A DNA stretch of 64,000 bases from the IMG/VR virus record IMGVR_UViG_3300045988_146774, positions 64,001 to 128,000 of that record, one strand, 5' to 3'. Source of the stretch: a virus. A program made the translations under genes and the position numbers. Positions 5,984-37,099 of this stretch are shown here, in pieces. The notes below the pieces were generated by a model, which made no database searches, was not told the origin of the DNA, and saw only the letters and a list, made by a program, of their open reading frames with translations. The stretch's first letter is position 1, and the number at the start of each line of letters is the position of its first letter.

Positions 5984-7344
5984 TGTAAACATATTGCCGA
6001 CTATTACAGTAATGTAATAAAAATAAAAGTGGCTATATCGGTTAATGTCCAGAAGTGGACAAGACCGAGGAAAGACTTGTATATTTTCGAAGCATATCAA
6101 TTAGGAAGGGTATGCTTTTATTAATTATAAAATTAAAATTAAGGAGATAAAATGCCAAGAAAAGGTAGTAAAACTGGATATACGATAAAATGTGAAAATT
6201 GTGGAAAAGAAATATATCAAACAAAAACTCAGTACAATAGAGCAAAGCATCATTTTTGTAGTAATAAATGTCAAAAGGATTTTCAACATAGACAACTATA
6301 TGAAAATAGAAAATGTCCGATATGTGGCTCCTTATTTGAAATAAGCAAGAAATCAAAACAAAAATTTTGTTCAACTAAATGTCAGAATGAATGGCAGAAA
6401 ACAAATACTGGTGAAAATAATGTTAGATTTAAAGGTTCTATCTGTAATTGCGATTGGTGTAATAAAAGGATAACAATTGGAAAGTCAAATATGGAAAGAT
6501 TTTCTAATCATTTTTGTTCTAATAAATGTAGACAAGCATGGTACTCAAATATTTATTCACAAAATGATACATGGAAAGAAGAATCTAGAATTCGAGCAGT
6601 TAAACTTTTAGAAGAAAGAAAAATAGATACAAATACAAAACCACAGATTATAATAAATAACTTGCTTGATGAATTGCAAATAAATTATATAAATGAAAAA
6701 AATTTGAAATATTATTCATTAGATAATTATTTAAAAGATAATAATTTGGCAATTGAAGTTATGGGAGATTTTTGGCATACCAATCCAATTGTGTATAATG
6801 AATTCCCATCAAAAGAAATACAAATAAAGAGAATATCAAAAGATAAAGCAAAACATACATATATTAAAAAATATTTTGACTATGAAATTTTATATTTATG
6901 GGAAAGTGATATTTATAAAAACTTGAACGTATGTAAAAAATTAATACAAAAATATATAAAAGAAAATGATCATTTACAAAATTATCATTCTTTCAATTAT
7001 CATATCGAAAATAATAATCTTATTTTAAATTCAAAAATAATTTACCCATATTTTGAAAAAGAATTAGTAGCATAGACTAATGCCTAATCATTTGGTTATG
7101 TGAAAAAGAAAATATACAAGAATCCGTAACGACTGTAACACTTTATATGGTAACATATAAAGTTTCGCCACTCTCCTATTAATATAGGATGAAGATCCAG
7201 TCTGAACTGTCAATAGACACTTCTATGAATTATTTCATAGTCGCCACGCTATAACTTAATGAAACGTGGGAATTAGCCAGAAATGACTAATCGCTATATT
7301 TAATATAGTCAGTACCATCTCACAAATGGGAAAGTAACAGGAAG
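5984..7344 (+). mobile_element. group I intron 1 (with homing-endonuclease ORF)
   Basis: P1: exon gtcggt 5978-5983 pairs with gccgac 5996-6001 (U.G at the splice site). P10: acatatt 5989-5995 pairs 7/7 with 3' exon aatatgt 7345-7351. The intron ends in G7344. P7: gactg 7131-7135 with cagtc 7198-7202. J8/7-like gaagatccagtc is present. Removal restores the frame and the TMP core motif. Confidence 0.8.
6152..7075 (+). CDS. intron-encoded homing endonuclease, zinc-ribbon repeats + Vsr-like/PD-(D/E)xK nuclease domain
   Basis: AAGGAGA RBS. Three CxxC...FCSxKC zinc-ribbon repeats at the N-terminus. The C-terminal segment LAIEVMGDFWHTNP...KDKAKH...ILYLWESDI resembles the Vsr/DUF559-type nuclease core (..GCFWH....WE..). 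It lies wholly inside intron 1. Confidence 0.7.
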   Translation: MPRKGSKTGYTIKCENCGKEIYQTKTQYNRAKHHFCSNKCQKDFQHRQLYENRKCPICGSLFEISKKSKQKFCSTKCQNEWQKTNTGENNVRFKGSICNCDWCNKRITIGKSNMERFSNHFCSNKCRQAWYSNIYSQNDTWKEESRIRAVKLLEERKIDTNTKPQIIINNLLDELQINYINEKNLKYYSLDNYLKDNNLAIEVMGDFWHTNPIVYNEFPSKEIQIKRISKDKAKHTYIKKYFDYEILYLWESDIYKNLNVCKKLIQKYIKENDHLQNYHSFNYHIENNNLILNSKIIYPYFEKELVA

Positions 7345-7923
7345 AATATGTGGAAAACGGTTAGCGCAAGATTGCGTGGTTCAGAATCTGAACTTAGTGC
7401 TATGGGTGAAGACACAGATGGTCTTGTAACCTCTACATCTAAGCTTCAGGCAAAAGTCAAAGCACTTACTGGTGGCTTTGACATTATGAAAGATAAAGAT
7501 ACATATAAAGATATCTATGATATTGTAGTTGGAATTGGTGAAGCATTTCCAAAGATGAATGACATAAATCGTGCTAGTTTGCTTGAACTTTTAGCAGGGA
7601 AAAACCAGTCAAATGCCCTCGCAGCAGCACTTCAGAACGTTGATGTGATAAAGAAGGCTTACAACACGGCTGCCAATGAATCAGAAGGATCTGCCGAAAA
7701 AGAATTTGACAATTATAAAAAATCGATCGATTATTCTATTCAAAATTTTAAGGCGCAGTTCCAATCTTTCTCATCATCCTTAGTATCATCTGACTTTGTA
7801 AAAGGAATTGTTGATAGTGGATCATCGGCACTTAATATCATTACGCAACTCATAGATAAAGTAGGCTTATTGAAAACTGCCTTCGCTACATTCGCTGGCG
7901 TAAAACTTTTCAAAAACTTAGAT
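7345..7923 (+). CDS. tail tape measure protein, exon 2 of 4 (3' end provisional: 7923, alternatively 7932)
   Basis: Continues the TMP core (NMWKTVSARLRGSESELSAMGEDTDGL...). The frame matches exon 1 across the 5983/7345 junction. The ORF-track tail (..LFYLNWSLHT) is probably intron read-through. Both 7923 and 7932 end in U and keep the frame with exon 3 at 12410. Confidence 0.7.
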
Positions 7924-8340
7924 TTGTTTTATCTAAACTGGTCACTTCATACATAAGAATATAACGAAAATGGTGTTGTAAACAAGTGTGTGTTGTTAAC
8001 GTTTTAAAATTAGGAAGATTAATTGCTGGGAAGCCTAATGCTTAATGAGCTACAACATAGTCGGAAACGGCAAGTGTGAATGCGACGAAAGTAGAAAAAA
8101 TCATTAAGATGACATATGGTGAAATAAAAGGCATCGGGAAGATGCTCCTAAGTGTCTAGTATAAGGGCAAAGGTTATAATAACCGACTAACTGATCAGCA
8201 ACGCACTGTTATAGAGAATATATAGCTGTATAGCAGGACGCTCAGAGACTACCGATCTTCGAAGTCAATATGACCTTACAGTATTGACTTATAATGTATA
8301 GTCCAAGAAACAATATATGTTTTGTTATTACATATTCAAA
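7924..8340 (+). ncRNA. group I intron catalytic core (ORF-less)
   Basis: P3: gaagat 8014-8019 with atcttc 8255-8260. J3/4-P4 taattgctggg 8020-8030 resembles aaauugcgggaaa of Tetrahymena. P4: ttgctg 8023-8028 with cagcaa 8196-8201. P7: gacta 8247-8251 with tagtc 8299-8303. P8: aagtcaata 8262-8270 with tattgactt 8282-8290. J8/7-P7 aatgtatagtcc resembles the consensus aagauauaguc. Confidence 0.7.
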
Positions 8341-8562
8341 TAAAATAACACGATGCCTTCTATCCCATCGTTATTGGCAATGGATAGAGAATAAATAACT
8401 ATAAACAATAATGGAGATTAGAAAAATATCTAATCTCCAAAATATAATATCGTGTCTCAGACCAGTCATAGTTTGAGATGCATATATTATAAGATATTTT
8501 CCGATTTCTGTAAATGGATTATGGAGAATATACAATTAGCTTACAGAAAGTGAGTGGCAATC

Positions 8563-8599
8563 CCCAACGGAGCTTGTGATGGCTCCGAAGGGTTTTCTT
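8563..8599 (+). terminator. rho-independent terminator (+ strand) inside the intron-2 island
   Basis: ccc-aa-cggagc (8563-8573) pairs with gctccg-aa-ggg (8582-8592), followed by ttttctt. Confidence 0.55.
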
Positions 8600-8642
8600 A
8601 AAAAGGAGGAAATTAATGGAATGATTCACAAATTCAAGTTAA

Positions 8643-8840
8643 TTATTTATTATGTAGTGTGAACATACTATGTGACATCATTTTAGCAATTGCCTTAGCT
8701 TTTTCATCACTGATGTCATCCTTAAAAGCGATAAGGAAAACAGCAATAATTTTAGAAATCTCATGAAGAGAAACATAAAGCATAAACGGAATCACTAAAT
8801 AGATGTTGTTTAAAAGAATTCCAAAAAATTCTTTCAACAC
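8643..8840 (-). CDS. small membrane protein (65 aa, hypothetical)
   Basis: GTG start after AAGGAGGG. Two hydrophobic stretches (IYLVIPFMLYVSL; IIAVFLIAF). A hairpin at 8413-8438 downstream on the - strand could be its terminator. Confidence 0.45.
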   Translation of the reverse strand: MLKEFFGILLNNIYLVIPFMLYVSLHEISKIIAVFLIAFKDDISDEKAKAIAKMMSHSMFTLHNK

Positions 8841-9071
8841 TACCCTCCTTTCTGTAAGATTAATTATCTTATTGGAAAATCAGGCAGAATAGCCCATTAG
8901 ATTTCCATCGTGCCATTGTCTTACACTGGCACTACCACGTAAAGATATGGTTACGAAAATCCGTGGAACTAAGCATATTGTGGTCATATGCTGATTTTGT
9001 AACAAATACATTATACCATTTTGTCAAAATTTGGAAATCCAGAACATACATTCAGAAAATAAATTAAACGG

Positions 9072-9410
9072 CTAATTGTATAAATTTCGGATTTTATCTT
9101 TATATGCAAAAGCAAGCGCACCTAGAAATTGTGCATTTGATGGACATTTGTTTGGAATATAACCGAATATTGGTTTTAGAATATCTTTTTGTTCATTAAA
9201 AAGATGTCGCACGACTGTACGAATGTTTGATTCTACGACCATTGTAGATGTATGGAATTTCTTTGCAATGGAAGGATATATGTCTTTTGTGATAAGATAT
9301 ATCTCATCATCTTCCACTTCGTTAATTAATTCAATCGCATATTTGATATATCGGTATCCTTTGTACCTCCGACTTATGCGACAGATGAATAAAAAGTCAT
9401 CAATTTTCAT
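9072..9410 (-). CDS. Spo0A C-terminal (DNA-binding) domain protein lacking a receiver domain
   Basis: Start at the ATG of MKIDD.. preceded by GAGGTGA. KGYRYIKYAIEL, ITKDIYPSIAKKFHTSTMVVESNIRTVV and FGY...CPSNAQFLGALA follow the Spo0A_C pattern (KGYxYLRxAI..TKxLYPxIAxxxxTTxSRVERAIRHAI..FGY...KPTNSEFIA) as I recall it. Confidence 0.7.
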   Translation of the reverse strand: MKIDDFLFICRISRRYKGYRYIKYAIELINEVEDDEIYLITKDIYPSIAKKFHTSTMVVESNIRTVVRHLFNEQKDILKPIFGYIPNKCPSNAQFLGALAFAYKDKIRNLYN

Positions 9411-9591
9411 ATAAATCACCTCATAAGTAAAAGATGCATTAATAATATACCATATTTAGCATACATTTCAAGATGTGACGTGCTAAGATTGTGTTAAGAT
9501 ATTAGTGTTAAATGTGTCGAATGGCAAAAATCACAATAAAACTATTATATTTTTGTGTATTATTTGTGTAGCATTTTCCCCATGGAACGGG

Positions 9592-9597
9592 TATAAT
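9592..9597 (+). promoter_or_regulatory. candidate -10 box (TATAAT) for the repeat-RNA/toxin operon
   Basis: Perfect TATAAT about 35 nt upstream of the tandem repeats. No convincing -35 was seen. Confidence 0.3.
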
Positions 9598-9631
9598 ATA
9601 AGCAAGAAAACAAAAGTTTTCTTATATACGT

Positions 9632-9751
9632 TTCACAATGTACGCCAAAGAAACATTGTATTTTGAGACAAACGTACTTCGCAATGTGTACCGAATTACA
9701 TTGTATTTTGAGACAAATTCCTTTCACAATGTAGGACAAAGAAACATTGTA
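9632..9751 (+). ncRNA. type III antitoxin-like tandem RNA repeats (ToxI/CptI-like), ~2.6 copies of ~45 nt
   Basis: ttcacaatgtacgccaaagaaacattgtattttgagacaaacgtac / ttcgcaatgtgtaccgaattacattgtattttgagacaaattcct / ttcacaatgtaggacaaagaaacattgta. The period is 45-46 nt. Each unit has an internal acaatgt..acattgt inverted repeat. Confidence 0.7.
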
Positions 9752-9787
9752 GAGGAGTGGTTCTGTTTAACAGATCACTCCTTTTTT
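9752..9787 (+). terminator. rho-independent terminator between repeat array and toxin ORF
   Basis: ggagtg 9754-9759 pairs with cactcc 9776-9781, followed by tttttt. The position matches the attenuating terminator of type III TA loci. Confidence 0.65.
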
Positions 9788-9803
9788 GATACATAGGAGA
9801 AAA

Positions 9804-10349
9804 ATGAAAGAACATGCTTTATATTTTGGGAAAAATGAGTATTATGAAATAATCAGAAGGAATGGTGGAACATGGAATGATTCAAAGGAAAGACCAATTG
9901 TATGTTTGATGAAATCCATAGAACACGAAAAGTTATATTGGGCTATTCCAGTTGGTAATTATTATCATAGAAATGAAGCTGCACGAGAAAGATTAGAAAA
10001 ATATCTTGGAAAAGATAAAAAGAATATACAATCTTGTTTTTATCATGTTGGAAATACAAATGAAAAATCTATTTTCTTTATAAGTGATGTTATACCTATT
10101 ACTGACAAATATATAGAACGGGAATATTTGAATAAAACAAGAAAGGTTCATGAGATAAAAAATAAAAAATTGTTAAATGAATTGGAGTATAAACTTAGTC
10201 GTATATTATCGTTTGAAAACAATAAACCAAATTATTTCCGTCAACACATTACAGACATTAAAACTTATCTGTTAGAAGAATTGAGACAGGAAGAATTACA
10301 ATCTCAAGAAGAAAACACAGAAGAACAAATCCAAGAATCAGAGCAGTAA
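9804..10349 (+). CDS. type III toxin, ToxN/AbiQ/CptN-like endoribonuclease (putative)
   Basis: ATG 9804 lies 3 nt after AGGAGA; the ORF-track start at 9786 overlaps the terminator. 181 aa. ERPIVCLMKS..EHEKLYWAIPVG and FFISDVIPI parallel the RPxxGIV...YxAPLTS and NxxxMIP segments recalled from ToxN/AbiQ. The repeats-terminator-ORF architecture is diagnostic. Confidence 0.65.
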   Translation: MKEHALYFGKNEYYEIIRRNGGTWNDSKERPIVCLMKSIEHEKLYWAIPVGNYYHRNEAARERLEKYLGKDKKNIQSCFYHVGNTNEKSIFFISDVIPITDKYIEREYLNKTRKVHEIKNKKLLNELEYKLSRILSFENNKPNYFRQHITDIKTYLLEELRQEELQSQEENTEEQIQESEQ

Positions 10350-10366
10350 TCACACTGCTCTTTTAT
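10341..10366 (+). terminator. rho-independent terminator after toxin gene
   Basis: gagcag 10341-10346 pairs with ctgctc 10355-10360, followed by ttttatt. Confidence 0.6.
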
Positions 10367-10442
10367 TATGTCAAAAATAAAGAGTAGAGAAAATTTTACC
10401 CTCTTCTATTCTACCACTTATATCCACAATCTTTACATTCAA

Positions 10443-10686
10443 ACTAACTACGTGCTGTTTTACTAAATATTCCAAGCAACCCTACTCCTACTGCTTTTGA
10501 TGCTGCGGAGATACGTTTGATATTTGTAAAATTGCATGTTGGGCAAGTTATTTGTGTGTTTGATTGTTGGCTTGAGGATTGATGTTGGGTGGATGTCGCA
10601 TTCCCTTTTACAGTACTCATTCTGTTTTCGTAGGTTTTTTCTGAAAATTGAAAACCGCCAAATTTATTAGCCAGAATACAGTAATA
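10443..10686 (-). pseudogene. truncated paralog of the C-terminal half of the zinc-ribbon gene 11789..12325
   Basis: The - strand frame reads ..ANKFGGFQFSEKTYENRMSTVKGNATSTQHQSSSQQSNTQITCPTCNFTNIKRISAASKAVGVGLLGIFSKTARS*. This parallels KKYGGNQFSECAYRHRL...THQHQSIQQQHITQVTCPYCKSTNTKKISAVSRAGSILGFGLFSKK. The N-terminal half and a proper start are missing. Confidence 0.55.
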
Positions 10687-10738
10687 TTACTAAATACAAT
10701 ACAATAGATTTATTTTTCATTTTGATATAAATAAAAAA

Positions 10739-10976
10739 AGAATAATACAATAAATAGACTCATCTCAGGTGCTAGACCACCAGGTGCATCAGTGAAATAA
10801 CGCAATTTACTATTATCTAGATGGTAAAGAACGCCAATGCTCACAAACATATTCCAGTCTACCGAAGCGGACTCTCGTATATTCGTGAACGTGTACTGGT
10901 TTCAGCACATTATACGTCATATAGCAATCACCTCCAAGATACACCCTTGAGATGAGCCTGTTTATTGTATTATTCT
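10739..10976. repeat. ~31-bp imperfect inverted repeats bracketing a 176-bp segment
   Basis: Left arm: agaataatacaataaatagactcatctcagg (10739-10769). Reverse complement of the right arm (10946-10976): agaataatacaataaacaggctcatctcaagg. About 28 of 31 positions are identical. Confidence 0.6.
10813..10920 (-). CDS. 35-codon mini-ORF inside the inverted-repeat element (hypothetical)
   Basis: GGAGGTGA then 7 nt then ATG. Product MTYNVLKPVHVHEYTRVRFGRLEYVCEHWRSLPSR. Below the ORF-track length cutoff. Confidence 0.35.
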   Translation of the reverse strand: MTYNVLKPVHVHEYTRVRFGRLEYVCEHWRSLPSR

Positions 10977-10984
10977 ATATTATT

Positions 10985-11677
10985 TTATTTGTTTTTATTT
11001 AATAATTTTTCTGCTTTTTCAAGTTCATATTTATTATGTATAGAACTTATTAATGCCTTTAAGAAACTTTTCATTTGCTCTATGTCGTATTCGGGATGTT
11101 TCACCATGTAATGTGTTTCGTCGTTTCCAAGCCACGTGGCTGCATTCGCTAATTTTTGTATAGGTTCAAATTCGATTTTTTGGCAACATTTTTCCAATCG
11201 GCATTCTCCAATAGCTTCTTTGGTTAGATTTTGTTCTTGTTGTAAATAGTCTTTCACAAGAAATTCAAGAGCTTTTCTGTAACCTGTGCCGGCTATTGTA
11301 AGCAAACCTTGTCTTTCACATTCACACGCCTCAGAAAATATTTTTGTAAAATCTGGATATTTGTCTTTAATATCTTGAGGAATTGAACTTTCTTCAATCT
11401 CTTTCGGATATGGATATCTAACATCTTTTTCAACATTTTTCAAACTACTTTTCATGTGATATAGAGATACATAATATTGTTTACAATTTGTACAATACCA
11501 AACTGCAAATAAAAGAGGCTTCTCCTTTTCATTGAAAGATCTAATTAAACATCCGTTTGCATATTCTGGTTTTCCAGACTTATGACATATTGGACATGTT
11601 GGTTCGATTTCTACAGAACTTGAAACTTTCGCATTTTCAATTTGTTTCGAATCAAATAATTTTATATCAACATTCAT
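10985..11677 (-). CDS. DUF4145 domain protein with N-terminal zinc ribbon
   Basis: 230 aa. N-terminal CPICH...YCTNCKQYY. The C-terminal segment TIAGTGYRKALEFLVKDYL...LGNDETHY fits the DUF4145 pattern (R.alE.l.kd...GN.aaH) as I recall it. Confidence 0.55.
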   Translation of the reverse strand: MNVDIKLFDSKQIENAKVSSSVEIEPTCPICHKSGKPEYANGCLIRSFNEKEKPLLFAVWYCTNCKQYYVSLYHMKSSLKNVEKDVRYPYPKEIEESSIPQDIKDKYPDFTKIFSEACECERQGLLTIAGTGYRKALEFLVKDYLQQEQNLTKEAIGECRLEKCCQKIEFEPIQKLANAATWLGNDETHYMVKHPEYDIEQMKSFLKALISSIHNKYELEKAEKLLNKNK

Positions 11678-11788
11678 TTATTGTCACATCCATTAACCTT
11701 ATACATAAAATTATATATTAATTGCTTTTTATTGTATATACGGAACTAATGTTTTGGTAATTTTTACCATAATTGATACATAAAGCTG

Positions 11789-12325
11789 TTAGAAATCACT
11801 ATTGCAATTGTTACAATGCCATTCTTTTCCCAATTTCTTAGAGAACAATCCAAATCCAAGGATTGATCCTGCTCTGCTTACTGCTGATATTTTTTTAGTG
11901 TTTGTAGATTTACAGTATGGGCAAGTTACCTGAGTTATGTGTTGCTGTTGGATGGACTGGTGTTGGTGGGTGGATTGATTTTTATTTTCTTGTTTTATTA
12001 AACTCAATCTATGACGATATGCACATTCAGAAAATTGATTACCGCCATATTTTTTTGAGAGAATGATATCATAATCATTTTCATTGTCCATATTGTTGAT
12101 AAAATCATTCATGGTTTCTTTTGTAATAATTGTTTTTATATTACAAAAGCGACATTTTTTGTCGGCGTTTAATTCATCGCTTGAGTATATCATTGCACAT
12201 TTTGGACAGATATAAATATAGTCATCTGCTTCTAAATTTGAACTTAAAGGGTATCCACACTGATTGCATTCTTTAGCATAATTACTAATTTCTTTCCCAC
12301 ATTCAGGACACTTTATTAATGCCAT
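11789..12325 (-). CDS. double zinc-ribbon protein (hypothetical)
   Basis: Start at the ATG of MALIKCPECGK.. preceded by GGAGGAA; the ORF-track start is 14 codons further upstream. CPECG..CNQCG, CPKC..CRFC and CPYC..CNNC motifs. Confidence 0.55.
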   Translation of the reverse strand: MALIKCPECGKEISNYAKECNQCGYPLSSNLEADDYIYICPKCAMIYSSDELNADKKCRFCNIKTIITKETMNDFINNMDNENDYDIILSKKYGGNQFSECAYRHRLSLIKQENKNQSTHQHQSIQQQHITQVTCPYCKSTNTKKISAVSRAGSILGFGLFSKKLGKEWHCNNCNSDF

Positions 12326-12373
12326 ATTATTTCCTCCGAACAATCTTATAAATTTATTTAAGTATATCATGAA

Positions 12374-12402
12374 TTGTAAAAGTATGCCAATAATTTTATA
12401 TT
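12374..12402 (+). promoter_or_regulatory. candidate sigma70-type promoter immediately upstream of TMP exon 3
   Basis: TTGTAA 12374-12379, 17-nt spacer, TATATT 12397-12402. The predicted start falls within a few nt of A12407/G12409. No Shine-Dalgarno precedes ATG 12407. Confidence 0.3.
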
Positions 12403-12409
12403 CATTATG

Positions 12410-15400
12410 CAGTTTAAAGACTTAGGAAGTTTATTTGATAGTTTTGGAGAACTTAATTTTAAACATGCAAGTAAAGCCTCTTCTTTTGCGGATTTGGATG
12501 GAATAGATAAAAACACTATAAAAGGTTTGTTTAAAATAGATAACAATGATATTAGTGATTTTACAATGGCTCAAATTCAGGCAAAAGCAAGTACGATGGG
12601 ACTTACTGAGTCATTAACAGATGAATTAATGGCTATGTCAAAAGACGCTGATTTTACAGCCAAAGCAAAAGTCGGTAAAGTAACTTGGGGGGAAGCACTA
12701 AAAGAAGGTTCAACAAATGCGGATCAAATAGGGAAAGCATTAATGAAATCTTCCGATGTTTCCGATAAAGCAAAGAAAAAATTATCGGAAGTTTATGATA
12801 AATTTGGAAGTGGAAGTCAAGTATATCAAAAACAGATAGAAAATATTATAAATGGTGCAAATGGTTTAGATGATATTTCTGGTAAATTTACAACTCTTGG
12901 GGCTGATGTCCAAAAATCTACTGGAATGTTCGAATCCGCTGGTAATATTATCAAAGGATTCTTTGCATCAATAAAAGGGTATATTCCTATTCTTGCTGTT
13001 GCCGGAACAGCTTTCGCAGCGTTTAAACTTTGGGACTATTCTCAAACTGGATATACTAGAGCTAAAGAGAAAGCAGAAACTTCAGCTTCTACTTTTTCAG
13101 AAGATAAATCTAATCTCCAATCTCTTCAACAAGAACTTGATACAACAAAGAGTAAAATTGAAGAACTCAATGCTACAAAAGAACAGAATGGTGGATTGTC
13201 TCTTACTGATGAAGCGGAGTTATCTAGACTTGAACAAGAAAATGCCCAGTTGGAGCGTAAGGTCGCAATTCAGAAACAGCTCACAGAAATTTCCGCACAG
13301 GCTGCTTCAAGTGACGCTCGAAAAGCTGCCAATACTGCCCAAACATATTGGGATCATCTTAAAGAGAAAAATGGCGGAGGATTTTTTGGAACGCTAAAAT
13401 CTATTCCTGAATATTTTGCTACAAAACGTGAAGAAAAAGATGGAAAAGTTTATCTCACTAAGGAGAAAAATACTTGGGAAAAAGAAAATGGTGGTAAAGG
13501 AAATACCACTCTTGAAAATCAAACAAAAGCCAATATTAAAACGCTCAAAGATTACCAAAGTCAATTAGAAGATATTGAAACTCAACTTGGAAGTTCTGAT
13601 TTGACAAAAGGAGAAAGAAAAAGTCTCCAAAAACAGCAAAAAGAACTTAGTGAAAATATTGCTGATACAAAGCAGACTTTATCTACACAGACAGACCAAC
13701 TTCAGCAGTGGATTGATGCTTCATATGGGGCAGATGGAAAACTTGAGTCTGGAGCATCTAAATATGTAGATAATTGGAATAAAATCATTAACGATGTTAA
13801 CAATACTATCGGGCAAAAGACCAAAACACAAATTGACGCAAGTAATTTAGATACTTACTTCAACTCTTCTTCTGGTTCTGCTATGAAAGAATATTTGGAG
13901 AATATTGTTGAGGAAGGCGGATCTGCTCAAGATGCACTTGACGCATTTAGAGAGTCCGGAATGCGTCTCAAAGATATTGATGTTTCAGAAAATGGATTTC
14001 TTACATATTTTGAAGATGTAAAACGTCAGGCAGAGGAAGCAAAGCAAGCTGCGGAAGATTATTCCGCTTCTGTTTCAGATGTAGAATCTGCAACTGAATC
14101 TGCAAATCAGGACAAAGATTGGTCTACTATCCAAAGTGCTTATAAGGCTGCAAAGGAATCATTGAAAGAAGGCAAAACTGGAACCGATGATTTTCAGACT
14201 ATGGCAAAATTCCTTAACTCCAATGCGGTAAAGAAATATGCAGAGCAAGGCGGTAAATATACTGCTGATGCTTATCAGAAAGCTTTCCAAGAGGCAATGG
14301 GAACAGCCGATAGATGGTTTGGTGATGATGAAGCCACTAGTATGAAGAATTTCGTCAATGACTTCAAAAATAAAGGATTGTGGGATGTCTCTACTGACGC
14401 AATGGGTCTTTGGGATATCAAAACAAACTTTAATACAACTGCTGAAGCTGCTGACAAGTTTGGAATGAGTGTTGAATCCGTAGAAACAATGTTGCATGGT
14501 CTTGAAGCCTATGGATATGACTTTAGTGACATTATGTTTTCTGCTGAAGGTCTTGATGAATATAAGACAGCTCTTGACGGGATTAAATCTACATATGATG
14601 AAATGACGGATGGTGCTGCTAAAGATAGACTTGGATCATTGATTGATAGTTTTGAATCTGAATATGATAAATTCCAAAATGGAGATTTAAAGAATCTTAC
14701 AAAGGATCAGATTGTTAAAATTAAATTTGAGTATGATTTATCTCAAGTTGAGCAAAAAACTCAAGAGTTGATTGATCAAGCTGCAAACAGTGGCTCTAAT
14801 AATGATTTAGCCGGAGCAATAGTTTCTCAGAAAAAAGAGCGTGATTTATTAGAGGGACGGACGAAATATACAAAAGATTCTGATGAAGGGTATTCATATT
14901 CTTATGATCAGATTGATAAGCTCCAACAAAAAATGACTGGCGCAACAAAGACAGAACGAGCAGAGATTAATAAGCAAATTCTTGCATATCAAGAAATGCA
15001 AAATAATTTTCAGAAATACAGACTTGATGGTGGAGATTTAAATTGGAATGATTATTTGGATACTCCTTCTGCTACCGCTGCTTTTGATGAGATTATTAAA
15101 AAAGGTCTTATGACAAAAGACCAACTCAAAGATTTGTTTGGAGAAAAAGCAACTTATGAGATTGATGCAAAGCTCAACGACGATAATCTCCAAAGCAAAT
15201 TAAAGAAGCTTAAATCTGGTGAAAGCATTACTTTTAAAGCAGATGTTGGCGATATTGAGACTGATGTAGAGGCTGTAAAAAATGAAGACGGTACGGTAAC
15301 ATACACAGCAAATATTGGTGGAGTCCCAAAAGAAGTAAATAAAATTGCCGACGCTGAAGGCAAGATTCATTATACTGCTGATTTTGATGGTTCGAAGGAA

Positions 15401-18400
15401 TGGCTTGAGAACAATCTTAAAAAAGAAGAAACAATTACATTCAAAGCTGACGTTGCTGGGGTTACACAAGATATCCAAGCTTATAAAGACGAAGACGGTA
15501 CAATTCATTATTATAGTGTTTTAGACAATGGAACACGCAAAGAACTAGAACAACATAAAAATGAAGACGGTACAATTACCTATACTACTACTGCTGACAC
15601 TTCTGGTGTGGAAAAAGCGACCAAGAAAGCTAAGGAAAATGCTGAAAAGAATAAAATCGAATTAGAGATTACTGCAAAAGATACCAATCTTGTAGATAAA
15701 TATATACAAGAAAAACAGAAAAGTGACGCAGCGAAATCAAAACTATCAGATTCTGAAGCTGTACATGGTAATGTAGATAGTCGTGATCGTCCAATGATTT
15801 ATTGGGACAAAGAAAACCTTAAATCTAATAAATCTGCTCTTAAGAGTTGGGGGCAGAATCCAAAGGATTTAAAAGGATCTTATTCTACTGTCATGGGCGG
15901 AAGTGATGAATTTCAAGGTGTAGAAATTGCATATACTCCTGTGCTGAAGACTGGTGATGGAAAAGGTGAAGTTATCAGCAAAAACACAATGAGTAAGTAT
16001 ATTAACACTCTCATTGATCAAGCAAAATCCGCTGGTGACGGAAATTGGACTACTGAAGATTTATTAAAATTAGATTCTGAAGGTTTATTAGTCGACGGGA
16101 AGAAAATTTCTAATATGATTGCAGATGTTGGTGACACTGCCAAAGAAACCGGCGAAAAGATGCATGATATAGATGATTCTCTTTATTCCGAAGAATATGC
16201 AAAATACTGGGATGAAATTTCTGAAAAGGCTGAAAAGGCTAATATGTCCGTCGAGGATTATGTCAATACAGTTGCTTCTACTAGCGTAACATCAGATAAT
16301 CTTGTAACAAAAGATAATGGATTTGATAAAGTTGTTGAAAACGCAAAGAATGCTGTCGAGACATTAAAAGGGCTTGGTAATGAGAATCTTAAGTTAGATT
16401 TTGATTTTAAAACTACTAATCTTACAGATATAGAAAATCAAATTCAGCAAGCAAAGAGTAATCTTGATCAGTTTAAGAATGATGACGGTACTGTTAATAT
16501 GTCAATCAATGGAGCACAAGAAGCAGTTACAATTCTTGAGACATTGATTCAGCAAAAACAGCAAGCCTCTAATCCTGTAATAATGGAAGTAAGCACAAGT
16601 GGACTTGATTCCGGAGTATCTGGTGCGGTTTCAAAATTAAAGGAGTATCAAAATGCCTTAAACCAGCTTAATACTCTTAATGAATTAAAAACTGCCGGGG
16701 TACAAATTGATGATTCTCAAATATCTGATGCCGAGGATAAAGTAAATGGCTTATTTGATGAAATTCAGAAAGCTTCTGAAAAAGGTCAATTTAAAATAAA
16801 TGCCGATGTTTCTGTAGATTCATCTTCACAAGAAAAGCTACAGTCAGACCTTAAAAACATGACTCCGGAGATTAAAGCAAAAATTACTGCGGATGATTCT
16901 GACACAAAGAAAGATGGCAAGACTACTGAAGCAAAAGTAAATTACAAAAAAGGATCACAAGAAAAACCAAGTCCTAAAAATGCCAAAGTTAATTACAAAA
17001 AAGGTTCTCAGGCAAAGCCTAGTCCAAAGAACGCAAAAGTTAACTATAAAAAGGGTAGCCAGGCTAAACCAAGTCCTAAAAATGCCAAAGTTAATTACAA
17101 AAAAGGTTCTCAGGCAAAGCCGACATCTCCTAAAACAGCAACAGTTAACTATAAACTTGGTACAGTTGCAAAACCACCTGCTGTAACAGTTAAAGTTAAT
17201 TACGATACTTCTGGTGCACCTAAAGTTCTTGGAACAGCGCATGTAAAAGGATCTACTGGTGGTTTATATCCTATTCCACAATTATCAAGACGTGCACTGG
17301 CAAGCGGAACATTGTCTGATTCCTCATGGTTGAAAGATAGATGGAAAACGAAAGACTCTGAAATGGCTTTGGTTGGGGAGGTCGGACAGGAACTTGTAGT
17401 TTCTGGAAACAGATGGTACACCGTCGGTGATAATGGTGCGGAATTTGCTCATATTCCTGCCAAATCAATCGTATTCAATTCTAAGCAGACTGAAGAGCTG
17501 TTGAAAAAAGGGTTTACTAATTCTAGAGGCAAAGGCAATATATCATTACCTGGAACAGAAGCATTTGCATCTGGTACTGCTTACAGGTTAGGCAGCGGAG
17601 CCTCTTCTACTACAAATGCTAAGAAAAAAACTTCGTCTGGAACCAAATCCTACGGAACTTCAAAAGCGAAATCAAGCTCTGGTTCAAACACAAAATCCAA
17701 TTCCAATTCAAATCCTGATTCATCTGAATCAGCAGAAAAATCTGAAGAATTATTAGATTGGATTGAAACTCTGCTTTCAAGGACTTCTAGATTGACAGAG
17801 TTAGCCACAAGTGCTGTTGATCGTGCGGTCGGATTGGCTAATAAGCAGAATGCACTTGTAGATGCGGTTACAAAAACTCAGAATGAAATCACTACAAACC
17901 AAAATGCAGCGAATAAATATTTTGCTCAAGCAAATTCTCTTGGTCTTGCTCAAGGATATGTCGACAAGATTAAAAATGGTACTCTTGATATTGAATCAAT
18001 TACTGATGATAATCTTAAAGATAAAATCTCTAAGTACAAAGATTACTATGAGAAAGGCTTGTCTGCTCAAGATAAAGTCCTCGACCTTCAAGACAAACTT
18101 AATGAACTCTACCAGAAACGATTGGAAATCATAGAAAAAGAATATGATACTATCGTTGAGGTAAACGATTCATTAAAGGATATGCTTGATGCTAAAATTA
18201 GTTACAACTCTGCTTATGGCGTAGCAAATGACAATCAAGATAATATAGATAGTATCAATAAGTCTATCAAAGCACAAGAAGATACTATCAATCAGCTTAC
18301 TAAAAAGCTTGATGCATATCAGAAGGAAGTTAATTCTCAGATTACTTCCGGGACATTGAAGAAAGGTTCTGAAGATTATAGGTCTGCACAGAAAAATCTT

Positions 18401-19287
18401 AATGATTTTACGGCAAATATTTATAAAGCATCACAAGAACTTATCGAGTTACGGGATAAACTTGTACAGTTAAGAGCTGATGCAATTCAGACGATTATTG
18501 ATACGTTCAAAAGACGTTCTGATAAATTGGATAAGTATACTTCTCTTCTTGAAGCTAAAGATGAAACTGTACCAGAATCAGTATATCAGGAAAGACTGGA
18601 TAACAACAATGACACAATTCGTAAGAACCAAGAAGCCAGAGCCATTTGGCTAAAACGACAAGCAACCGAAGATGTAAATTCGGACAACTATAAGAAATAT
18701 GCTGAGGAAATCCAGAAACTTGATGAATCCACTCTTGACCTTATGAAAGACAACGAAGATTTAAAGAACTCTATCTATTCTCTCAGAATCAAAAATCTGG
18801 AAGATGCCATCAAAGGTTATGATGATTTGGAAACTGAGTTAAAAGGATTCAGAGATCTTTTAAATGACGATGCTTTCTTAGATAAAAAGGGTGGAATCAC
18901 AGATGAAGGATTGGCTCAGATTACTCTTCTCTCTCAGAGTATCGGAAATGCAAAACAGAAAATTTCTGACCTCACAACCGGACTTCAGAAAGTAAAAGAA
19001 CTTTATGATAATGGTGTTATCTCACTTAAAGAATATAACGAAAAATCTGCGGAATATCGCAAAGAACTTCAGTCTTCTACAAGTGATGTAAAATCTTATC
19101 AGAAGAGTTTGACTGATTTATATCAGAATGCTTTGAAAACAGAAGTGGATGCACTTCAAAAAGTCATAGATAAAAGAAAGTCGGCACAGACCGCCCTTGC
19201 TTCATATTACGATTTTCAAAAAAAAGTTACATCTCAAACAAATGATGTAAACAGCTTAAAAGCTCAAATTGCAGCACTCGAAGGGGT
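12410..19287 (+). CDS. tail tape measure protein, exon 3 of 4
   Basis: 6.9-kb open frame. It has a hydrophobic segment (GYIPILAVAGTAFAAFKLW), long coiled coils, EDGT-I/V-x-Y repeat modules and the TMP-type motif ALVGEVGQELVV. ATG 12407 lies in frame 3 nt upstream. The 3' end is set by the intron 3 P1 pairing; the tail TLFALFV is read-through. Confidence 0.8.
16934..17211 (+). repeat. 51-nt (17-aa) tandem coding repeat within TMP exon 3
   Basis: KVNYKKGSQ(E/A)KPSPKNA occurs four times, followed by degenerate copies (KVNYKKGSQAKPTSPKTA, TVNYKLGTVAKPPAVTV, KVNYDTSGAP). Confidence 0.85.
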
Positions 19288-19529
19288 AACATTATTTGCC
19301 CTATTTGTTTAATTGCTGGAACGCCCTTAGAGCTACATATACTACAACGAATACATGAAATAAGGTAAATCGTGAATGTTAAAAAATATGTAGATTGGGT
19401 AATCAGCAGCGAAATTCCGAACAGGAATACGTTCAACGACTAGGTAGGATGAGTGTACTACCGTAGGATCGCAAGCGATTGGCGATTCGAAAAATACAAA
19501 CTGTTTATTAATTAAATATAGAATTCATA

Positions 19530-19557
19530 AATCACGTTGAGATATACGTGATTTTTT
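19530..19557 (+). terminator. terminator-like hairpin inside intron 3 upstream of the endonuclease ORF
   Basis: aatcacg 19530-19536 pairs with cgtgatt 19547-19553, followed by tttt. It may limit endonuclease expression. Confidence 0.35.
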
Positions 19558-19603
19558 AGTGTGCGAATTTATTTAAAGAGAATAAAAGAAATGGAGGTGA
19601 AAT

Positions 19604-28471: not shown

Positions 28472-28502
28472 AAGAGGGCGGTTACTACTGCCCTCTTCTA
28501 TT
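28472..28502 (+). terminator. stem-loop (member of the CTCTTCTATT hairpin family)
   Basis: aagagggc 28472-28479 pairs with gccctctt 28490-28497, followed by ctatt. Confidence 0.4.
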
Positions 28503-28519
28503 AATAAAAAGGAGGTCAC

Positions 28520-28819
28520 ATGGAAACTTTTGATACAACATCCGTTTCTGGACTTCTCGGAGAAACAATAACATGCGGTCATGTGACTTGTACTGAAACC
28601 GCAACATTAAGGTTAAATAATACAATTAAAATAGCCGATAATTATGTATATCAGATAGTTATTAAATCTGCTGCTACATCAAACATTGTATTAAAAATCG
28701 GCACACAATCTTTTAATCTCGCCTCTACTACTTCGTGGCAAAGATTAATTCAGAAATTTACAATTGAAAACAATAATACAAATTACATAGATTTAATATT
28801 CTCTCCGGTCAGAATTTAA
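28520..28819 (+). CDS. truncated duplicate of the receptor-binding/fibre protein N-terminal domain (99 aa)
   Basis: ITCGHVTCTETATLRLNNTIK..YVYQIVIKS...TSWQRLIQKF..YIDLIFSP parallels IQCGHLTCDEISTLRLNDVLK..YIFQTKMKS...PTWQKFVNKF..YIELTFPP at the start of 28958..30535. Confidence 0.5.
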   Translation: METFDTTSVSGLLGETITCGHVTCTETATLRLNNTIKIADNYVYQIVIKSAATSNIVLKIGTQSFNLASTTSWQRLIQKFTIENNNTNYIDLIFSPVRI

Positions 28820-28957
28820 TCAAAGGGCAGACCAAATTGGAATGAAAATTTCATCCGAAAATGTGATGTCAAAAGTGCCCATTTTAAGGGCTTTTTTGAG
28901 ATCGCATTTTTTGTGATTTCTGTAAATTATTAACTTTTCACTCAAGGAGGTGATTTT

Positions 28958-30535
28958 ATGTACAAGATGGAACAAACAACCACATATGATGATAATCTTG
29001 ACGAAATTCAGTGCGGACATCTTACTTGTGACGAAATAAGTACGCTTCGTTTGAATGATGTCTTAAAAGAGTCAGGAAAATACATTTTTCAAACAAAAAT
29101 GAAATCCAAGTCCTCTTCTGCTGTTGTTTTATCTATAACAAATCAAGAATGTACTTTTAATACAACTCCAACATGGCAGAAGTTCGTAAATAAATTTGAC
29201 AGTATTGATACAACGACTCGAAAATATATAGAACTTACTTTTCCGCCTGGTGAATATTGGTTTTATCATACAAAACTTGAAGTCGGCTCTGTTCCTACTG
29301 TTTGGTCAGAAGCTACAGAAGACATTAATTATAAGCTTACAACTATATATTCTCAATTCACTCAAAGGGCTGATGGTATAGAAGCAGTTGTTGGTCAAAA
29401 GCAAGATGCAAATATTACATCCGTTAGATATATTCGTGATTGGCTGGATGGAAATAATGTTGACAACAAGAACTATTGGGGTGAAATTAACGTAATTACG
29501 CATGATGGAGAAAATGTATTAGATAGTTCTCTTATTAGATTGCAAGCGAAAAACGAAGCTTTAAGTACAATAATGATTAATGATATAGAAAGAATTAAAG
29601 ATGGAACATTGTCATCTTACACAATTGATAGTGATGGGAATACTGTATATCATTATTCAGAAGATGACTATGTTATCAACACCGGGAAAGCATGTATCGA
29701 AATTGATCTTGGTCAAATATATAATGATATCGACTATATTCGCATATGGCATAGATTCGCTGACGGTAAATTCGTTTTTAATCATAAACTCCAAACTTCT
29801 ATAGATGGTGTCACATGGGTAACATTATATGACAGCAGTATAACTGGTGGATATGAAGAATCTGTTGATGGTAAATTATACTATCTAAACGAATCTAATA
29901 TCATTTCTTCCATGAACAAATTAAGCATGACACTTAACGAAACAAGGTCACAATTATCTGATACTTCTGGTAATTTAAGTACATTGACACAAACAGTAAA
30001 AGGAATCAATGAGACTGTTTCTAAAAACTATGAAGATGCAAATAGTGCATTGGTAAAATTACGGGAAGATTTGAATGCAAAGATATCAGAAACAGAAAAG
30101 GCATTGGCTAACTTCCGAATTGAAGCAGGTAATATATATGCAACCGCTGAATCAGTGGATAAAAATAATAATAAATTAGCGTCATTAATCCAACAGAGTT
30201 CTAATGGATGGGAAGCTTTATTTGCCGAACTTAATATGGGTGAAAACAAAGGTAAATATAATATTCAGACAAATATCACGCTTAACAAAAATGGTATAAC
30301 AGTTACCAACCCAATTACAGGACAAACCACACAAATGACGATCGATCAATTTTGTGGATTATATCATGGAGAAAAAGTATTCTGGATAGATAAAGATACA
30401 ACGAAAACACGAAGGTTGCTGTGTGAAAAAGGATGGGATACTGATTATATCAAAATGACGACGAATGCATATAAGTATGCTAATGGAACAGTTGTAAAAG
30501 GAGTTGCATTTGTTAAGTCTGGAGGTACAAGTTAA
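28958..30535 (+). CDS. tail fibre / receptor-binding protein with discoidin (F5/8 type C)-like domain and coiled coil
   Basis: AAGGAGGTGA RBS. 525 aa. ..IEIDLGQIYNDIDYIRIWHRFADGKFVFNHKLQTSIDGVTWVTLYD is discoidin/galactose-binding-like. It is followed by a heptad-rich segment. Confidence 0.55.
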   Translation: MYKMEQTTTYDDNLDEIQCGHLTCDEISTLRLNDVLKESGKYIFQTKMKSKSSSAVVLSITNQECTFNTTPTWQKFVNKFDSIDTTTRKYIELTFPPGEYWFYHTKLEVGSVPTVWSEATEDINYKLTTIYSQFTQRADGIEAVVGQKQDANITSVRYIRDWLDGNNVDNKNYWGEINVITHDGENVLDSSLIRLQAKNEALSTIMINDIERIKDGTLSSYTIDSDGNTVYHYSEDDYVINTGKACIEIDLGQIYNDIDYIRIWHRFADGKFVFNHKLQTSIDGVTWVTLYDSSITGGYEESVDGKLYYLNESNIISSMNKLSMTLNETRSQLSDTSGNLSTLTQTVKGINETVSKNYEDANSALVKLREDLNAKISETEKALANFRIEAGNIYATAESVDKNNNKLASLIQQSSNGWEALFAELNMGENKGKYNIQTNITLNKNGITVTNPITGQTTQMTIDQFCGLYHGEKVFWIDKDTTKTRRLLCEKGWDTDYIKMTTNAYKYANGTVVKGVAFVKSGGTS

Positions 30536-30542
30536 TTTTTAT

Positions 30543-30568
30543 GAGAGGTTTAATTACCTCTCTTTTTT
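30543..30568 (+). terminator. rho-independent terminator
   Basis: gagaggt 30543-30549 pairs with acctctc 30556-30562, followed by tttttt. Confidence 0.7.
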
Positions 30569-30592
30569 AATTTAGAAAGATGAGGTGATTGA

Positions 30593-32605: not shown

Positions 32606-33485
32606 ATATTTAAGATTGCCAAATGGTAAAAAAATAAAATATTATAATTTTGCAATTACTAATGCATTGATTGTAAAATTTATTGACGCAGATATAAAAG
32701 AATTAAAATCATTCTTCGGGACGGATATCATTGATTATATTGATATTGTAGATGAAACTGATAACATATTAGAAAATCATAATCTCTATATGAAAAGGAC
32801 TTCTATCTTAACAGAGTCATCTTTTATTGTTGAATATGAAGATCGTGTTGTAAAAGAAGCATGGACGGATGAAGACGGAGTTGAGCATCCGGCAGAAACA
32901 GAAAAAATATCAAAGGAAATTCCTTGTGATATAACTACTGTTATTTTAGAGAAACCTTCTGTGTCGGAAGAATTAGATAATGTGAAATCAATTGTTGGAA
33001 TTGTAAACCCAAACAATATGACATTGGATGAGTTTAAAGATTATTATAAAACGCAAATTGGGAAAGAATGTACTGCTGCGATTGAAAATGGTGTTGATGT
33101 AGAAACAACGCTTGGTAAGAAACATTTTTCTTATACAATTGAAGATCAAAGCAATGTAAAAGATTTGATTATAACTGCTATTTTTACTGATTTTACTCTT
33201 CCACTTCCGTATCATGCTGATGGCGAATTGTGTACTTTATATCAGCCAAACGACATTCAGAATATCTACATGTCTTTATGTTCAAATAAAACTTATCATA
33301 CAACTTATTGCAATGTTTTAAATGCCATGATTAATGAAGCAAAAGATCTTGTGTCTGTAAAAGCAATTACATATGGCATGGAAATTACAGATGAAAAGTA
33401 TCTTGAAGTAATGACAAAGATTAATGAATCTAAAGATGCATTGCTTGCATATGTTGAAAAGAAATTTAATACAAGTGGTGAATAA
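32598..33485 (+). CDS. DUF4376-like protein (tail-fibre accessory/chaperone-like), copy 2
   Basis: TTG start overlaps the upstream stop, after GGAGAGGAG. The C-terminal region is paralogous to 27821..28471. Confidence 0.45.
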   Translation: MDRYLRLPNGKKIKYYNFAITNALIVKFIDADIKELKSFFGTDIIDYIDIVDETDNILENHNLYMKRTSILTESSFIVEYEDRVVKEAWTDEDGVEHPAETEKISKEIPCDITTVILEKPSVSEELDNVKSIVGIVNPNNMTLDEFKDYYKTQIGKECTAAIENGVDVETTLGKKHFSYTIEDQSNVKDLIITAIFTDFTLPLPYHADGELCTLYQPNDIQNIYMSLCSNKTYHTTYCNVLNAMINEAKDLVSVKAITYGMEITDEKYLEVMTKINESKDALLAYVEKKFNTSGE

Positions 33486-33487
33486 AT

Positions 33488-33970
33488 ATGAATAAAATAA
33501 AATATTATTTAAAACGAATTTTTTGTCATGTATTTATATTCTTATTCTCTGGTACGGTTTATTACTTAATGGAAGTTTTATTTAAAGATGCTCATAGTTC
33601 TCATTGGACAATGTTCTTATTAGCTGGATTCTCAGCATTGTTTTTCATTGATGGATTAAATGATTTATTTGGATATGATATGGATTATTTATTGCAATGC
33701 ATTATTTGTGCTACCGCAATAACAATTGGAGAATTATGCGTTGGTTTAATCTGGAATTTTGATTATGGAATATGGGACTATCGTAATATGCCATTAAATT
33801 TTAAAGGGCAAATATGTTTGCCATTTTATTTTTTATGGGTGTTATTATCTGCAATTTTTATTCCTGTGCTGGATTATATCGAATGGAAATGGTTTAACTA
33901 TGAAGTCGATAATCCTCCATATTATAAAATTTTTGGAAAAGTTATATTTAGATTTGGTGGTGATAGATAA
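33488..33970 (+). CDS. polytopic membrane protein (DUF1113/CmpB-like); possible holin-like role by position
   Basis: 160 aa with 4-5 hydrophobic helices. ..GELCVGLIWNFDYGIWDYRNMPLNFKGQICLPFYFLW resembles the family annotated as putative ABC-transporter type IV. It lies two genes upstream of the endolysin. Confidence 0.5.
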   Translation: MNKIKYYLKRIFCHVFIFLFSGTVYYLMEVLFKDAHSSHWTMFLLAGFSALFFIDGLNDLFGYDMDYLLQCIICATAITIGELCVGLIWNFDYGIWDYRNMPLNFKGQICLPFYFLWVLLSAIFIPVLDYIEWKWFNYEVDNPPYYKIFGKVIFRFGGDR

Positions 33971-34441: not shown

Positions 34442-34540
34442 TTACGATAATTATTTTTTTTTTGATCACTCTAAGAGTCAAGTTTAAAAGCTTGGCTCTT
34501 TTTATTTTGCAATTTTTTACAATGAAAGGAGAATTTCATT

Positions 34541-35698: not shown

Positions 35699-35713
35699 AA
35701 TTAGATATAATTA

Positions 35714-35747: not shown

Positions 35748-35755
35748 ACGATTTT

Positions 35756-37093: not shown

Positions 37094-37099
37094 CCCTCC

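Follow-up and report, generated by a model that had tools for sequence, protein, structure and literature searches.

Introduction

Group I introns are thought of as compact elements, 0.25-0.5 kb long and carrying at most a homing endonuclease or, in the IStrons, a transposon. Here we describe a 4.5-kb interruption of the tape-measure protein (TMP) gene of a temperate phage, at positions 7924-12409 of a 64,000-nt window (the whole stretch of DNA analysed, positions 64,001 to 128,000 of IMG/VR record IMGVR_UViG_3300045988_146774). We read this interruption, intron 2 of the gene, as a functional IStron-like group I intron that is spliced in cis, and give that reading a probability of about 0.55. 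The ribozyme, P1 to P9, would occupy the first ~400 nt; the ~4.1 kb after P9 would be cargo, with the far end marked only by a terminal G and by the exon sequence that pairs in helix P10.

The closest known system is the IStron. In IStrons such as CdISt1 and BcISt1 an IS200/IS605 or IS607 element is joined to a group I ribozyme (PMC4227781; bioRxiv 10.1101/2023.11.20.567912), and these ribozymes splice in vivo across ~2 kb of 3' coding cargo (PMC4227781). The phage element has the same layout, with a whole ribozyme at its 5' end (7924-8323) and kilobases of coding cargo before the 3' splice site (12409), and its removal from the host mRNA would likewise render the insertion harmless. IStrons are found in Clostridia and Fusobacteria and in phages of these hosts, and in four loci related to the window (L026, L038, L039 and L061) a TnpB gene lies right after the core. 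The first-pass annotation of this DNA, which knew of no such arrangement in a phage tape-measure gene, had placed the element further from described systems than the IStrons leave it. There are also clear differences. The cargo in the window is not a transposon, and across the family it forms a variable multi-gene island of 2-7 kb, compared with ~1.4-2.6 kb in a survey table of IStrons. Many of the genes in it are antisense, with their own promoters and terminators; a zinc-ribbon gene that is not a transposase is conserved at the 3' end, and TnpB, where present, is not at that end. All 50-odd copies occupy one TMP codon, whereas IStrons insert at many sites, set by a 5' pentanucleotide, and are present in several copies per genome. 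The 3' TCAG end and the inverted-repeat closing stem of IStrons are also absent here.

Group I introns with homing-endonuclease open reading frames (ORFs) are known from the td, nrdB and sunY genes of phage T4 and from SPO1 and Twort, as well as from structural genes of Bacillus and Staphylococcus phages and tail genes of cluster J mycobacteriophages (PMC3984707, PMC3706429, PMC2504315). Intron 2 shares with them its position in an essential gene, an early in-frame stop, and the presence of intron-plus and intron-minus alleles among relatives, and introns 1 and 3 of the same TMP gene are of this ordinary kind. Ordinary phage introns are typically shorter than 1.5 kb and hold either no ORF or a single sense endonuclease ORF in a peripheral loop, whereas intron 2 holds several unrelated genes and no recognisable homing endonuclease, and P10 measures 7-13 bp.

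Bipartite group I introns that are trans-spliced naturally occur in organelles, in placozoan and lycophyte cox1. These are broken inside a helix or loop, and the halves reassemble through complementary strands. In the phage, the 5' exon with its part of the intron and the 3' exon may also lie on separate transcripts, but the 5' side holds the core in its entirety, and complementary halves were not found. The island also resembles the moron and defence hotspots in late operons of prophages: its genes are self-contained, have promoters and terminators of their own, lie among tail genes and are exchanged quickly between related phages. Known moron hotspots lie between genes, while this one lies within a gene and needs a ribozyme to restore the frame. 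A full-text literature search recovered phage tail and TMP introns and IStrons, but neither a multi-gene, largely antisense island within a group I intron nor a description of this TMP-site intron family; coverage of the search was incomplete, and the result is an absence of evidence.

The distal junction

Homology of TMP exon 2, assessed with tblastn and an alignment of homologs, stops exactly at 7923 (d_exp=0), after ..KLFKNLD, and more than 100 homologous TMP-N proteins (PF10145) end 0-42 aa past this motif, in tails that are unrelated. A TMP frame opens again at 12380, followed by an ATG at 12407 and the exon proper from 12410, and the first 262 aa of exon 3 are 98% identical to P0001-P0005. 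The P1 guide sequence includes a P10 strand at 7934-7940 (uaaacug) that is fully complementary, at 7/7 pairs, to CAGUUUA at 12410-12416, right after G12409. This strand lies immediately 5' of the P1 strand, the canonical position for P10, and joining 7923 to 12410 keeps the frame (..KNLD/QFKDLG..), so that the element has both the terminal (omega) G and the P10 of a group I intron. The match and its reading frame are present just as the first-pass annotation described them. Within 7924-12500 CAGTTTA has a single occurrence (against 4 in 64 kb), which leaves no other 3' site closer to the core. An unrestricted P1/P10 search also returned the solution 7891/12525, which was rejected because it deletes conserved residues and is off the conserved site. 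Among GenBank phages, megablast of 10 kb found no close relatives and tblastn of the spliced junction gave only three weak TMP matches.

We collected relatives with a pattern search of IMG/VR, which yielded 71 loci from phages of 80-200 kb. Genome bins point to Clostridia/Lachnospiraceae as their hosts, with Butyrivibrio, Faecalibacillus and Blautia among them. About 50 of the 71 loci interrupt TMP at the same codon, with 0.8-7 kb until the next giant frame, and in nine outgroup loci TMP runs uninterrupted across the site. The locus in the window, seen in the first pass as a one-off, is therefore one member of a widespread family, which also shares a conserved antisense zinc-ribbon gene. When the splice search demanded no more than a U at the 5' site, a G in the guide, a G as the last intron base and an unbroken frame, the best solution fell exactly at the homologous codon in most loci. 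The exon part of P1 was 3-7 bp in these relatives, always with the U·G pair, and P10 was 6-13 bp. The paired P10 sequences differ by lineage yet stay complementary: CAGUUUA/uaaacug, CAAGUUAAAG/uuuuaacuug, AUAUUCAAAACA/uguuuugaauau, CUUGCACA/ugugcaag, GCAGUACAAU/auuguacugc and CGAAUAAA/uuuauucg. P1 of L009 carries a compensatory change of its own, from GAGU/GCUCAG to GAAU/GUUCAG.

In 15 non-redundant loci the observed P10 exceeded every null window drawn from the same TMP-C ORF. An unconstrained search of the whole locus for the exact complement of the 8 nt on the 5' side of the guide G located it where TMP-C begins, with a G before it and the frame kept, in 7/7 lineages; background matches to the 8-mer complement elsewhere in the loci had random context. 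A null that paired guides with the 3' exons of other loci was dropped because homologous loci contaminated it, and the in-ORF windows and the 8-mer test replaced it.

The comparison with relatives lacking the island, as proposed in the first pass, was also informative. Locus L055 has a 2.06-kb intron with a DUF3800 gene and a zinc-ribbon gene, and L057 and L058, which are ~97% identical to it upstream, are intron-less. L055 spliced at GGU/...cag/GCAGUAC (10609/12668) equals L057 residue for residue (..LTGHG/AVQYD..), and the spliced DNA aligns contiguously with L057 across the junction (1-945 at 90%). Together, the covariation of P1 and P10, the 8-mer test, the in-ORF nulls, the intron-less allele and the uninterrupted outgroup TMPs show that selection for RNA pairing acts on the distal junction and that the two ORFs are halves of one protein. 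The placement of the 3' splice site at G12409, across the whole island, is borne out by this covariation and by the G and the frame in 7/7 lineages, and 7923/12410 is very probably a genuine, selected group I splice junction.

The last three bases of the intron are AUG, in frame with the 3' exon, in the window (12407-12409) and in many lineages. In sister lineages they are replaced, by ACG in L042, L009, L017 and L029, by TTG in L003 and L056, by CAG in L055 and by AAG in L026 and L061. The lineages share the pattern U/A-A/U-Y-G. Inspection of the sequence upstream of ATG 12407 found no Shine-Dalgarno, in agreement with what had been noted for this in-frame ATG, and gene callers annotate MQFKDLG... 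as the start in relatives. Because the ATG at the intron end is not conserved and has no Shine-Dalgarno, independent translation of TMP-C is unlikely. Apart from P10, the first 700 nt form no significant duplex with the last 60 nt, and a long-range inverted repeat was not found.

A hairpin was seen by eye 15-25 nt upstream of the 3' splice site in the lineage of L010, L013, L017, L027, L029, L034 and L052, within the last ~45 nt of the intron (16620-16655 in L010, 14665-14701 in L013, 17395-17428 in L017). Its stems covary (UGAUG/CAUCA, ACAAGU/ACUUGU, UAUACU/AGUAUA, UGCUU/AAGCA), and in its conserved loop, YUCAAACA, the opening bases of the 3' exon recur; these are the P10 target, so that the loop is complementary to the guide as well. 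Such a loop could be a tether between the guide and the distant 3' end, or a P10 decoy. The hairpin is lacking in L021 and in the window lineage, and RNAalifold on the 3' tails returned no pairs, the stems being out of register in the MAFFT alignment.

The ribozyme core

The core model (Table 1) combines manual assignment with sub-domains folded by RNAfold, and was tested on an alignment of four sequences: the window, its 94-97% relatives L001 and L002, and the distant L042, whose TMP exon is ~55% identical to that of the window at the protein level. In this alignment 98.2% of the cells pair, a percentage that is biased since the model came partly from the window's own minimum-energy fold. The compensatory counts are free of this bias: 11 compensatory pair changes separate the window from L042, compared with 3.0±1.4 in shuffles (0/500) and 0-2 in slid-partner controls. 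P3 compensates as well, GAAGAU/GAUCUUC having become GAGGAU/GAUCCUC in L042 (aligned by eye, as MAFFT misplaced the L042 strand). The topology is that of a group I core, with the P3/P7 pseudoknot, P4-P6, J8/7 and a bulged P7, and support for it is good, if not exhaustive. The complete core that had been recognised within ~400 nt of exon 2 is thus confirmed, with its helices assigned.

P1 pairs the end of the exon with the guide and has the U·G wobble of the 5' splice site. All 8 of its pairs are retained in the window, L001 and L002, and 7/8 in L042. The GAU/GUC pairing is identical in L042 and L026 and extended to 5 bp in L038; together with the extension on the intron side it makes a respectable hairpin. 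Of the two versions of P1 offered in the first pass, gaU/Guc is the right one, and ttagat/atctaa is wrong, since it places the P1 strand 5' of the P10 strand.

Related segments were also seen elsewhere in these genes. Intron 1 (5988-7344) has a canonical guide, acatattGCCGAC, that forms a 6-bp P1 with exon GUCGGU, and a P10 of 7 bp with AAUAUGU after G7344; its sense ORF (6152-7075, 307 aa) encodes several treble-clef zinc fingers and belongs to no recognised endonuclease family. The GUCGGU/GCCGAC P1 of intron 1 is also used at the intron 2 site in L010, L021, L029 and L034, a shared feature which hints that one intron lineage may have moved between the two TMP sites. Intron 3 (19303-19600) is the sole sequence in the window touched by the Rfam group I model, at 37.8 bits (cut-off 50). 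An nhmmer search with the intron 2 core brought up related segments, P3-P5, at later positions in TMP-C of L042, L056, L059 and L060, and these giant TMP genes therefore hold several introns.

Table 1. Positions of the tape-measure gene pieces, ribozyme helices, cargo and signals in the window.
Feature	Position	Strand	Remarks
TMP exon 1	4055 to ~5987		Followed by intron 1 (5988-7344)
TMP exon 2	7345-7923	+	Ends ..KLFKNLD; last base, U7923, is the 5' splice site
P1 hairpin	7921-7943	+	Exon GAU with GUC 7941-43, U7923·G7941; intron part 7924-29/7935-40
Ribozyme	7944-8323	+	P2, P3, P4, extended P5 domain, P6, P7, P8, J8/7, P9
In-frame stop	7954-7956	+	10 codons into the intron, upstream of P3; ORF 7348-7956
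P3	8014-20/8254-60	+	Pseudoknotted with P7
P4	8024-29/8195-8200	+	
P6	8206-13/8229-36	+	
P7	8245,8247-51/8299-8304	+	A8246 bulged
P8	8262-70/8282-90	+	J8/7 is 8 nt
P9	8307-12/8318-23	+	
Peripheral hairpins	8412-39, 8452-81, 8563-99		Terminator-like on one or both strands
ORF, 65 aa	8643-8840	-	No family; shared with L001
Spo0A_C-type DNA-binding domain gene	9072-9419	-	Pfam PF08769, E 1.2e-20
CptI-type antitoxin RNA	9624-9750	+	~2.7 tandem repeats of 45 nt (TRF); Rfam RF02920, 73.5 bits
CptN type III toxin gene	9804-10349	+	PDB 4RMO CptN, E 4.3e-7; NCBIfam CptIN, E 8.8e-17
Pseudogene	10444-10677	-	Partial copy of zinc-ribbon gene c0; cluster c0
Inverted-repeat element	10727-10988		Arms 10727-67 and 10948-88; 41 nt, 85% complementary, 180 nt apart
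DUF4145 / PHROG 1305 'DNA binding protein' gene	10985-11677	-	Cluster c9, in 5 loci
Multi-zinc-ribbon gene c0	11789-12325	-	Pfam zinc ribbons
3' intron tail with divergent promoter-like region	12340-12408		
Terminal G12409 (omega G), 3' splice site and P10 target	12409-12416	+	P10 target CAGUUUA at 12410-16
TMP exon 3	12410-19312	+	~2300 codons; then intron 3 and exon 4

Cargo of the intron

The contents of the island agree with the first-pass annotation: four antisense genes, a plus-strand type III toxin-antitoxin operon, a pseudogene and an inverted-repeat element were all found (Table 1). The operon was identified as CptIN from RF02920, 4RMO and NCBIfam, with a terminator-like hairpin at 10340-61 after the toxin gene. 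A tandem-repeat antitoxin RNA lies directly upstream of a gene for a CptN-family toxin, although the toxin scores 61 against the NCBIfam CptIN model, below that model's cut-off of 90. The Rfam family concerned, RF02920 (Fusobacteriales-1), is typed 'Cis-reg' and sits here as tandem repeats right before the CptN-like toxin; from this arrangement the repeats appear to behave as a type III antitoxin array and not as a cis-regulatory leader. Direct repeats D1 and D2 connect the pseudogene to 11946-12064. The likely start of the zinc-ribbon protein encoded by c0 is MALIKCPECG at 12325, after a GGAGG Shine-Dalgarno. Its relatives fill 130 database clusters, none of them named, and Pfam, PHROGs, NCBIfam, PADLOC, AlphaFold2 (pLDDT 75.6) and Foldseek against PDB were all uninformative as to its function, with no PDB fold match. 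PADLOC gave no matches in the window's cargo, no transposase was found there with Pfam, PHROGs or NCBIfam, and no homing endonuclease was recognisable.

Cargo ORFs were clustered across 53 loci. Of these, 42 had the c0 gene, always on the minus strand, and in 39 no other gene came between it and the 3' splice site. A plus-strand gene for a ~330-aa DUF262/GmrSD_N protein that matches PADLOC NsnA (E 1.5e-34) and PD-T4-2_A occurred in 20 loci. The remaining cargo was variable and included MazF/PemK-like toxins, DUF3800, DUF2513, DUF3825 and a trypsin-like protein, with TnpB in 4/53 loci and IS21 in one. Even among relatives of 94-97% identity the cargo has been replaced between conserved ends, as L001 and L002 differ from the window in mid-island. 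The TnpB genes (cluster c21; OrfB_IS605 plus a Cas12f-like TNB domain) directly follow the ribozyme in L026 (11224-12396), L038, L039 and L061, and these loci look like intermediates between classical IStrons and cargo introns. The IS21 istA/istB genes lie inside the intron cargo of L012, at 13574-15903.

The phage is temperate, with integrase and lysin genes downstream, as seen from the gene table of L002 and its mapping to the window. L002 (SRR30940047_8618, 18.9 kb) matches the window at 7662-13742 and 28473-38378. It retains the tail of exon 2, the ribozyme, the island and the first 459 TMP-C codons, which are followed at once by genes for the distal tail, lysis and the integrase; a dUTPase region lies upstream. 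L002 is either a derivative formed by deletion, a small element that is defective or satellite-like, or a chimera of the assembly. Homology of both L001 and L002 to the window starts abruptly at 7662-7675, inside exon 2.

Promoter and terminator signals

The terminator reported at 8563-8599 folds and is followed by UUUUCUU, yet it was not listed by a simple terminator scan. The sigma70-like promoter reported just upstream of the 3' splice site, TTGTAA-17-TATATT (12374-12402), is there as a motif, but it is a 9/12 match of a kind found 50 times in 5.5 kb where 30 were expected; relatives do not keep it at this position, and the -35 carries a mutation in L001. Across lineages, plus-strand promoter-like sites in the last 90 nt were ~1 SD above background and inconsistent in position; the -10 end lay 37-41 nt before the terminal G in 8 lineages, and L034 had an 11/12 match. 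A promoter-like site on the minus strand, TTGGCA-18-TGaTATACT (12390->12361), also lies near the 3' splice site.

The best promoter match of the region is on the minus strand, TTTACA-17-TATAAT (11/12), at 8514->8486. It points leftwards into two strong hairpins, the second of which (8439-8412) is followed by a T-run. Taken at face value, these signals could yield a ~70-nt antisense small RNA over the ribozyme periphery (8410-8514).

Alternative explanations

Several observations weigh against an intron that is spliced in cis. The Rfam model Intron_gpI (RF00028) misses the core at its gathering threshold and also at E<=10, on 17 kb as well as on 551 nt; the low score of intron 3 indicates that the model is insensitive to the introns of this phage, and structure and comparison led us to keep the core as group I. 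In the window lineage the exon contributes only 3 bp to P1. No closing stem joins the 3' end to the core, as RNAduplex and an inverted-repeat search gave none above shuffled background. Terminator-like hairpins on the plus strand (8452-81, 8563-99 and 10340-61) stand between the core and the 3' splice site, as they do in 24/28 related introns, and antisense transcription units could impede read-through. A spliced or intron-less junction protein was not found among 5.8 billion database proteins, for the window and the L003 family alike; four apparent junction-spanning proteins were rejected as read-through into the intron.

The hairpins, the antisense units, the short P1, the lack of a closing stem and the long P10 keep alive an intron in two parts spliced in trans, which we nevertheless consider unlikely. 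The exon 2-ribozyme RNA would end at the hairpins and terminators after the core, and a separate exon 3 RNA, begun in the divergent promoter region, would be captured by the long P10 and the terminal G; in the one lineage with the YUCAAACA loop, this mimic of the P10 target would help by tethering the separate RNA to the guide. The P10 of group I introns is usually 3-6 bp. Here it reaches 13 bp and is the sole long-range contact found, and the terminator-like hairpins follow both the core and the plus-strand cargo genes, in an island that is mostly antisense. Yet four introns lack any plus-strand terminator, and complementary intron halves such as those of organellar trans-spliced introns were not found. 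The promoter-like sites, for all their slight excess and the strong match in L034, are at chance level in the window and unconserved in position across lineages, and in L034 the predicted start falls within the conserved hairpin; a promoter firing at G12409 is thus a weak argument for trans-splicing. The literature search gave no bacterial or phage precedent.

The weak P1 could also be that of a dead or negligibly splicing intron, with P10 a relic and the TMP made as two polypeptides, a TMP-N that stops at 7954 and ends ..NLDLFYLNWSLHT and a TMP-C that starts (M)QFKDLG from ATG 12407, whose mRNA might be leaderless. An ATG in frame where the intron ends, the start called there in relatives, the lack of a spliced product in databases and the gross rearrangement of the TMP region tolerated in the lineage of L002 would all fit. 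We think this quite improbable, and the earlier suggestion of it loses ground, because both the weak P1 and P10 are kept in L042 and L026 despite exons of ~55% aa identity, the changes between the window core and L042 are compensatory rather than disruptive, ACG stands in place of ATG in L042, there is no Shine-Dalgarno, and in relatives TMP is one continuous protein. Late operons commonly contain accessory-gene islands, and with no group I match from Rfam one could suppose that there is no intron at all, only two adjacent tail genes split by an ordinary moron island, with ..NLDLFYLNWSLHT as the native C-terminus of TMP-N and with RNA structure and complementarities that are coincidental or serve another purpose. 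That idea is strongly disfavoured. P1 and P10 covary, 7/7 lineages have the terminal G and the right frame, the intron-less allele yields the exact junction, the core has the P3/P7 pseudoknot with a bulged A in P7, and TMP-N homology ends in mid-codon-string with unrelated read-through tails and not in a conserved C-terminus. An intein, ribosomal bypass and frameshifting were rejected, as there are no intein motifs and the 4.5-kb gap holds genes on both strands.

Proposed mechanism

For the cis-spliced intron that we favour, we infer the following course. The TMP message would read through the island during late transcription. The ribozyme would cut after U7923, held by G7941 of the P1 guide; the guide at 7934-40 would next pair with CAGUUUA at 12410-16, G12409 would enter the G-binding site of P7, and the exons would be ligated as ..KNLD-QFKDLG.. 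in one TMP of ~3,600 aa, containing the junction peptide ..FKNLDQFKDLGSLF... The cargo would consist of self-contained transcription units, the zinc-ribbon gene having its own promoter by the 3' splice site, and the island genes are presumably expressed from the prophage in the lysogen. The intron would then act as a safe harbour and exchange hotspot for accessory and defence genes within an essential late gene.

Significance

In this family a group I core comes with 2-7 kb of cargo that can be exchanged, within a structural gene essential to the phage. This cargo comprises type III and MazF-like toxins, DUF262 proteins like NsnA and PD-T4-2, DNA-binding proteins and insertion sequences, and from its layout appears largely antisense and independently transcribed. 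It is doubtful, but conceivable, that in phages of gut Clostridia a ribozyme provides a safe harbour for defence islands while the exons are joined in trans through an extended P10. If so, this would be the first group I intron of bacteria or phages with natural trans-splicing, and tail assembly would be coupled to the transcriptional state of the island.

If the splicing proposed here is true, these introns would be a new type of hotspot for accessory and defence genes, one missed by gene-neighbourhood searches because annotators see two unrelated 'tail proteins'. They would also pose the question of how a ribozyme holds its 5' exon and finds a 3' site that lies kilobases away, or on a separate transcript. 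Finally, they would supply a rule for re-joining split TMP genes, the length of which sets the length of the tail, in catalogues of gut phages.

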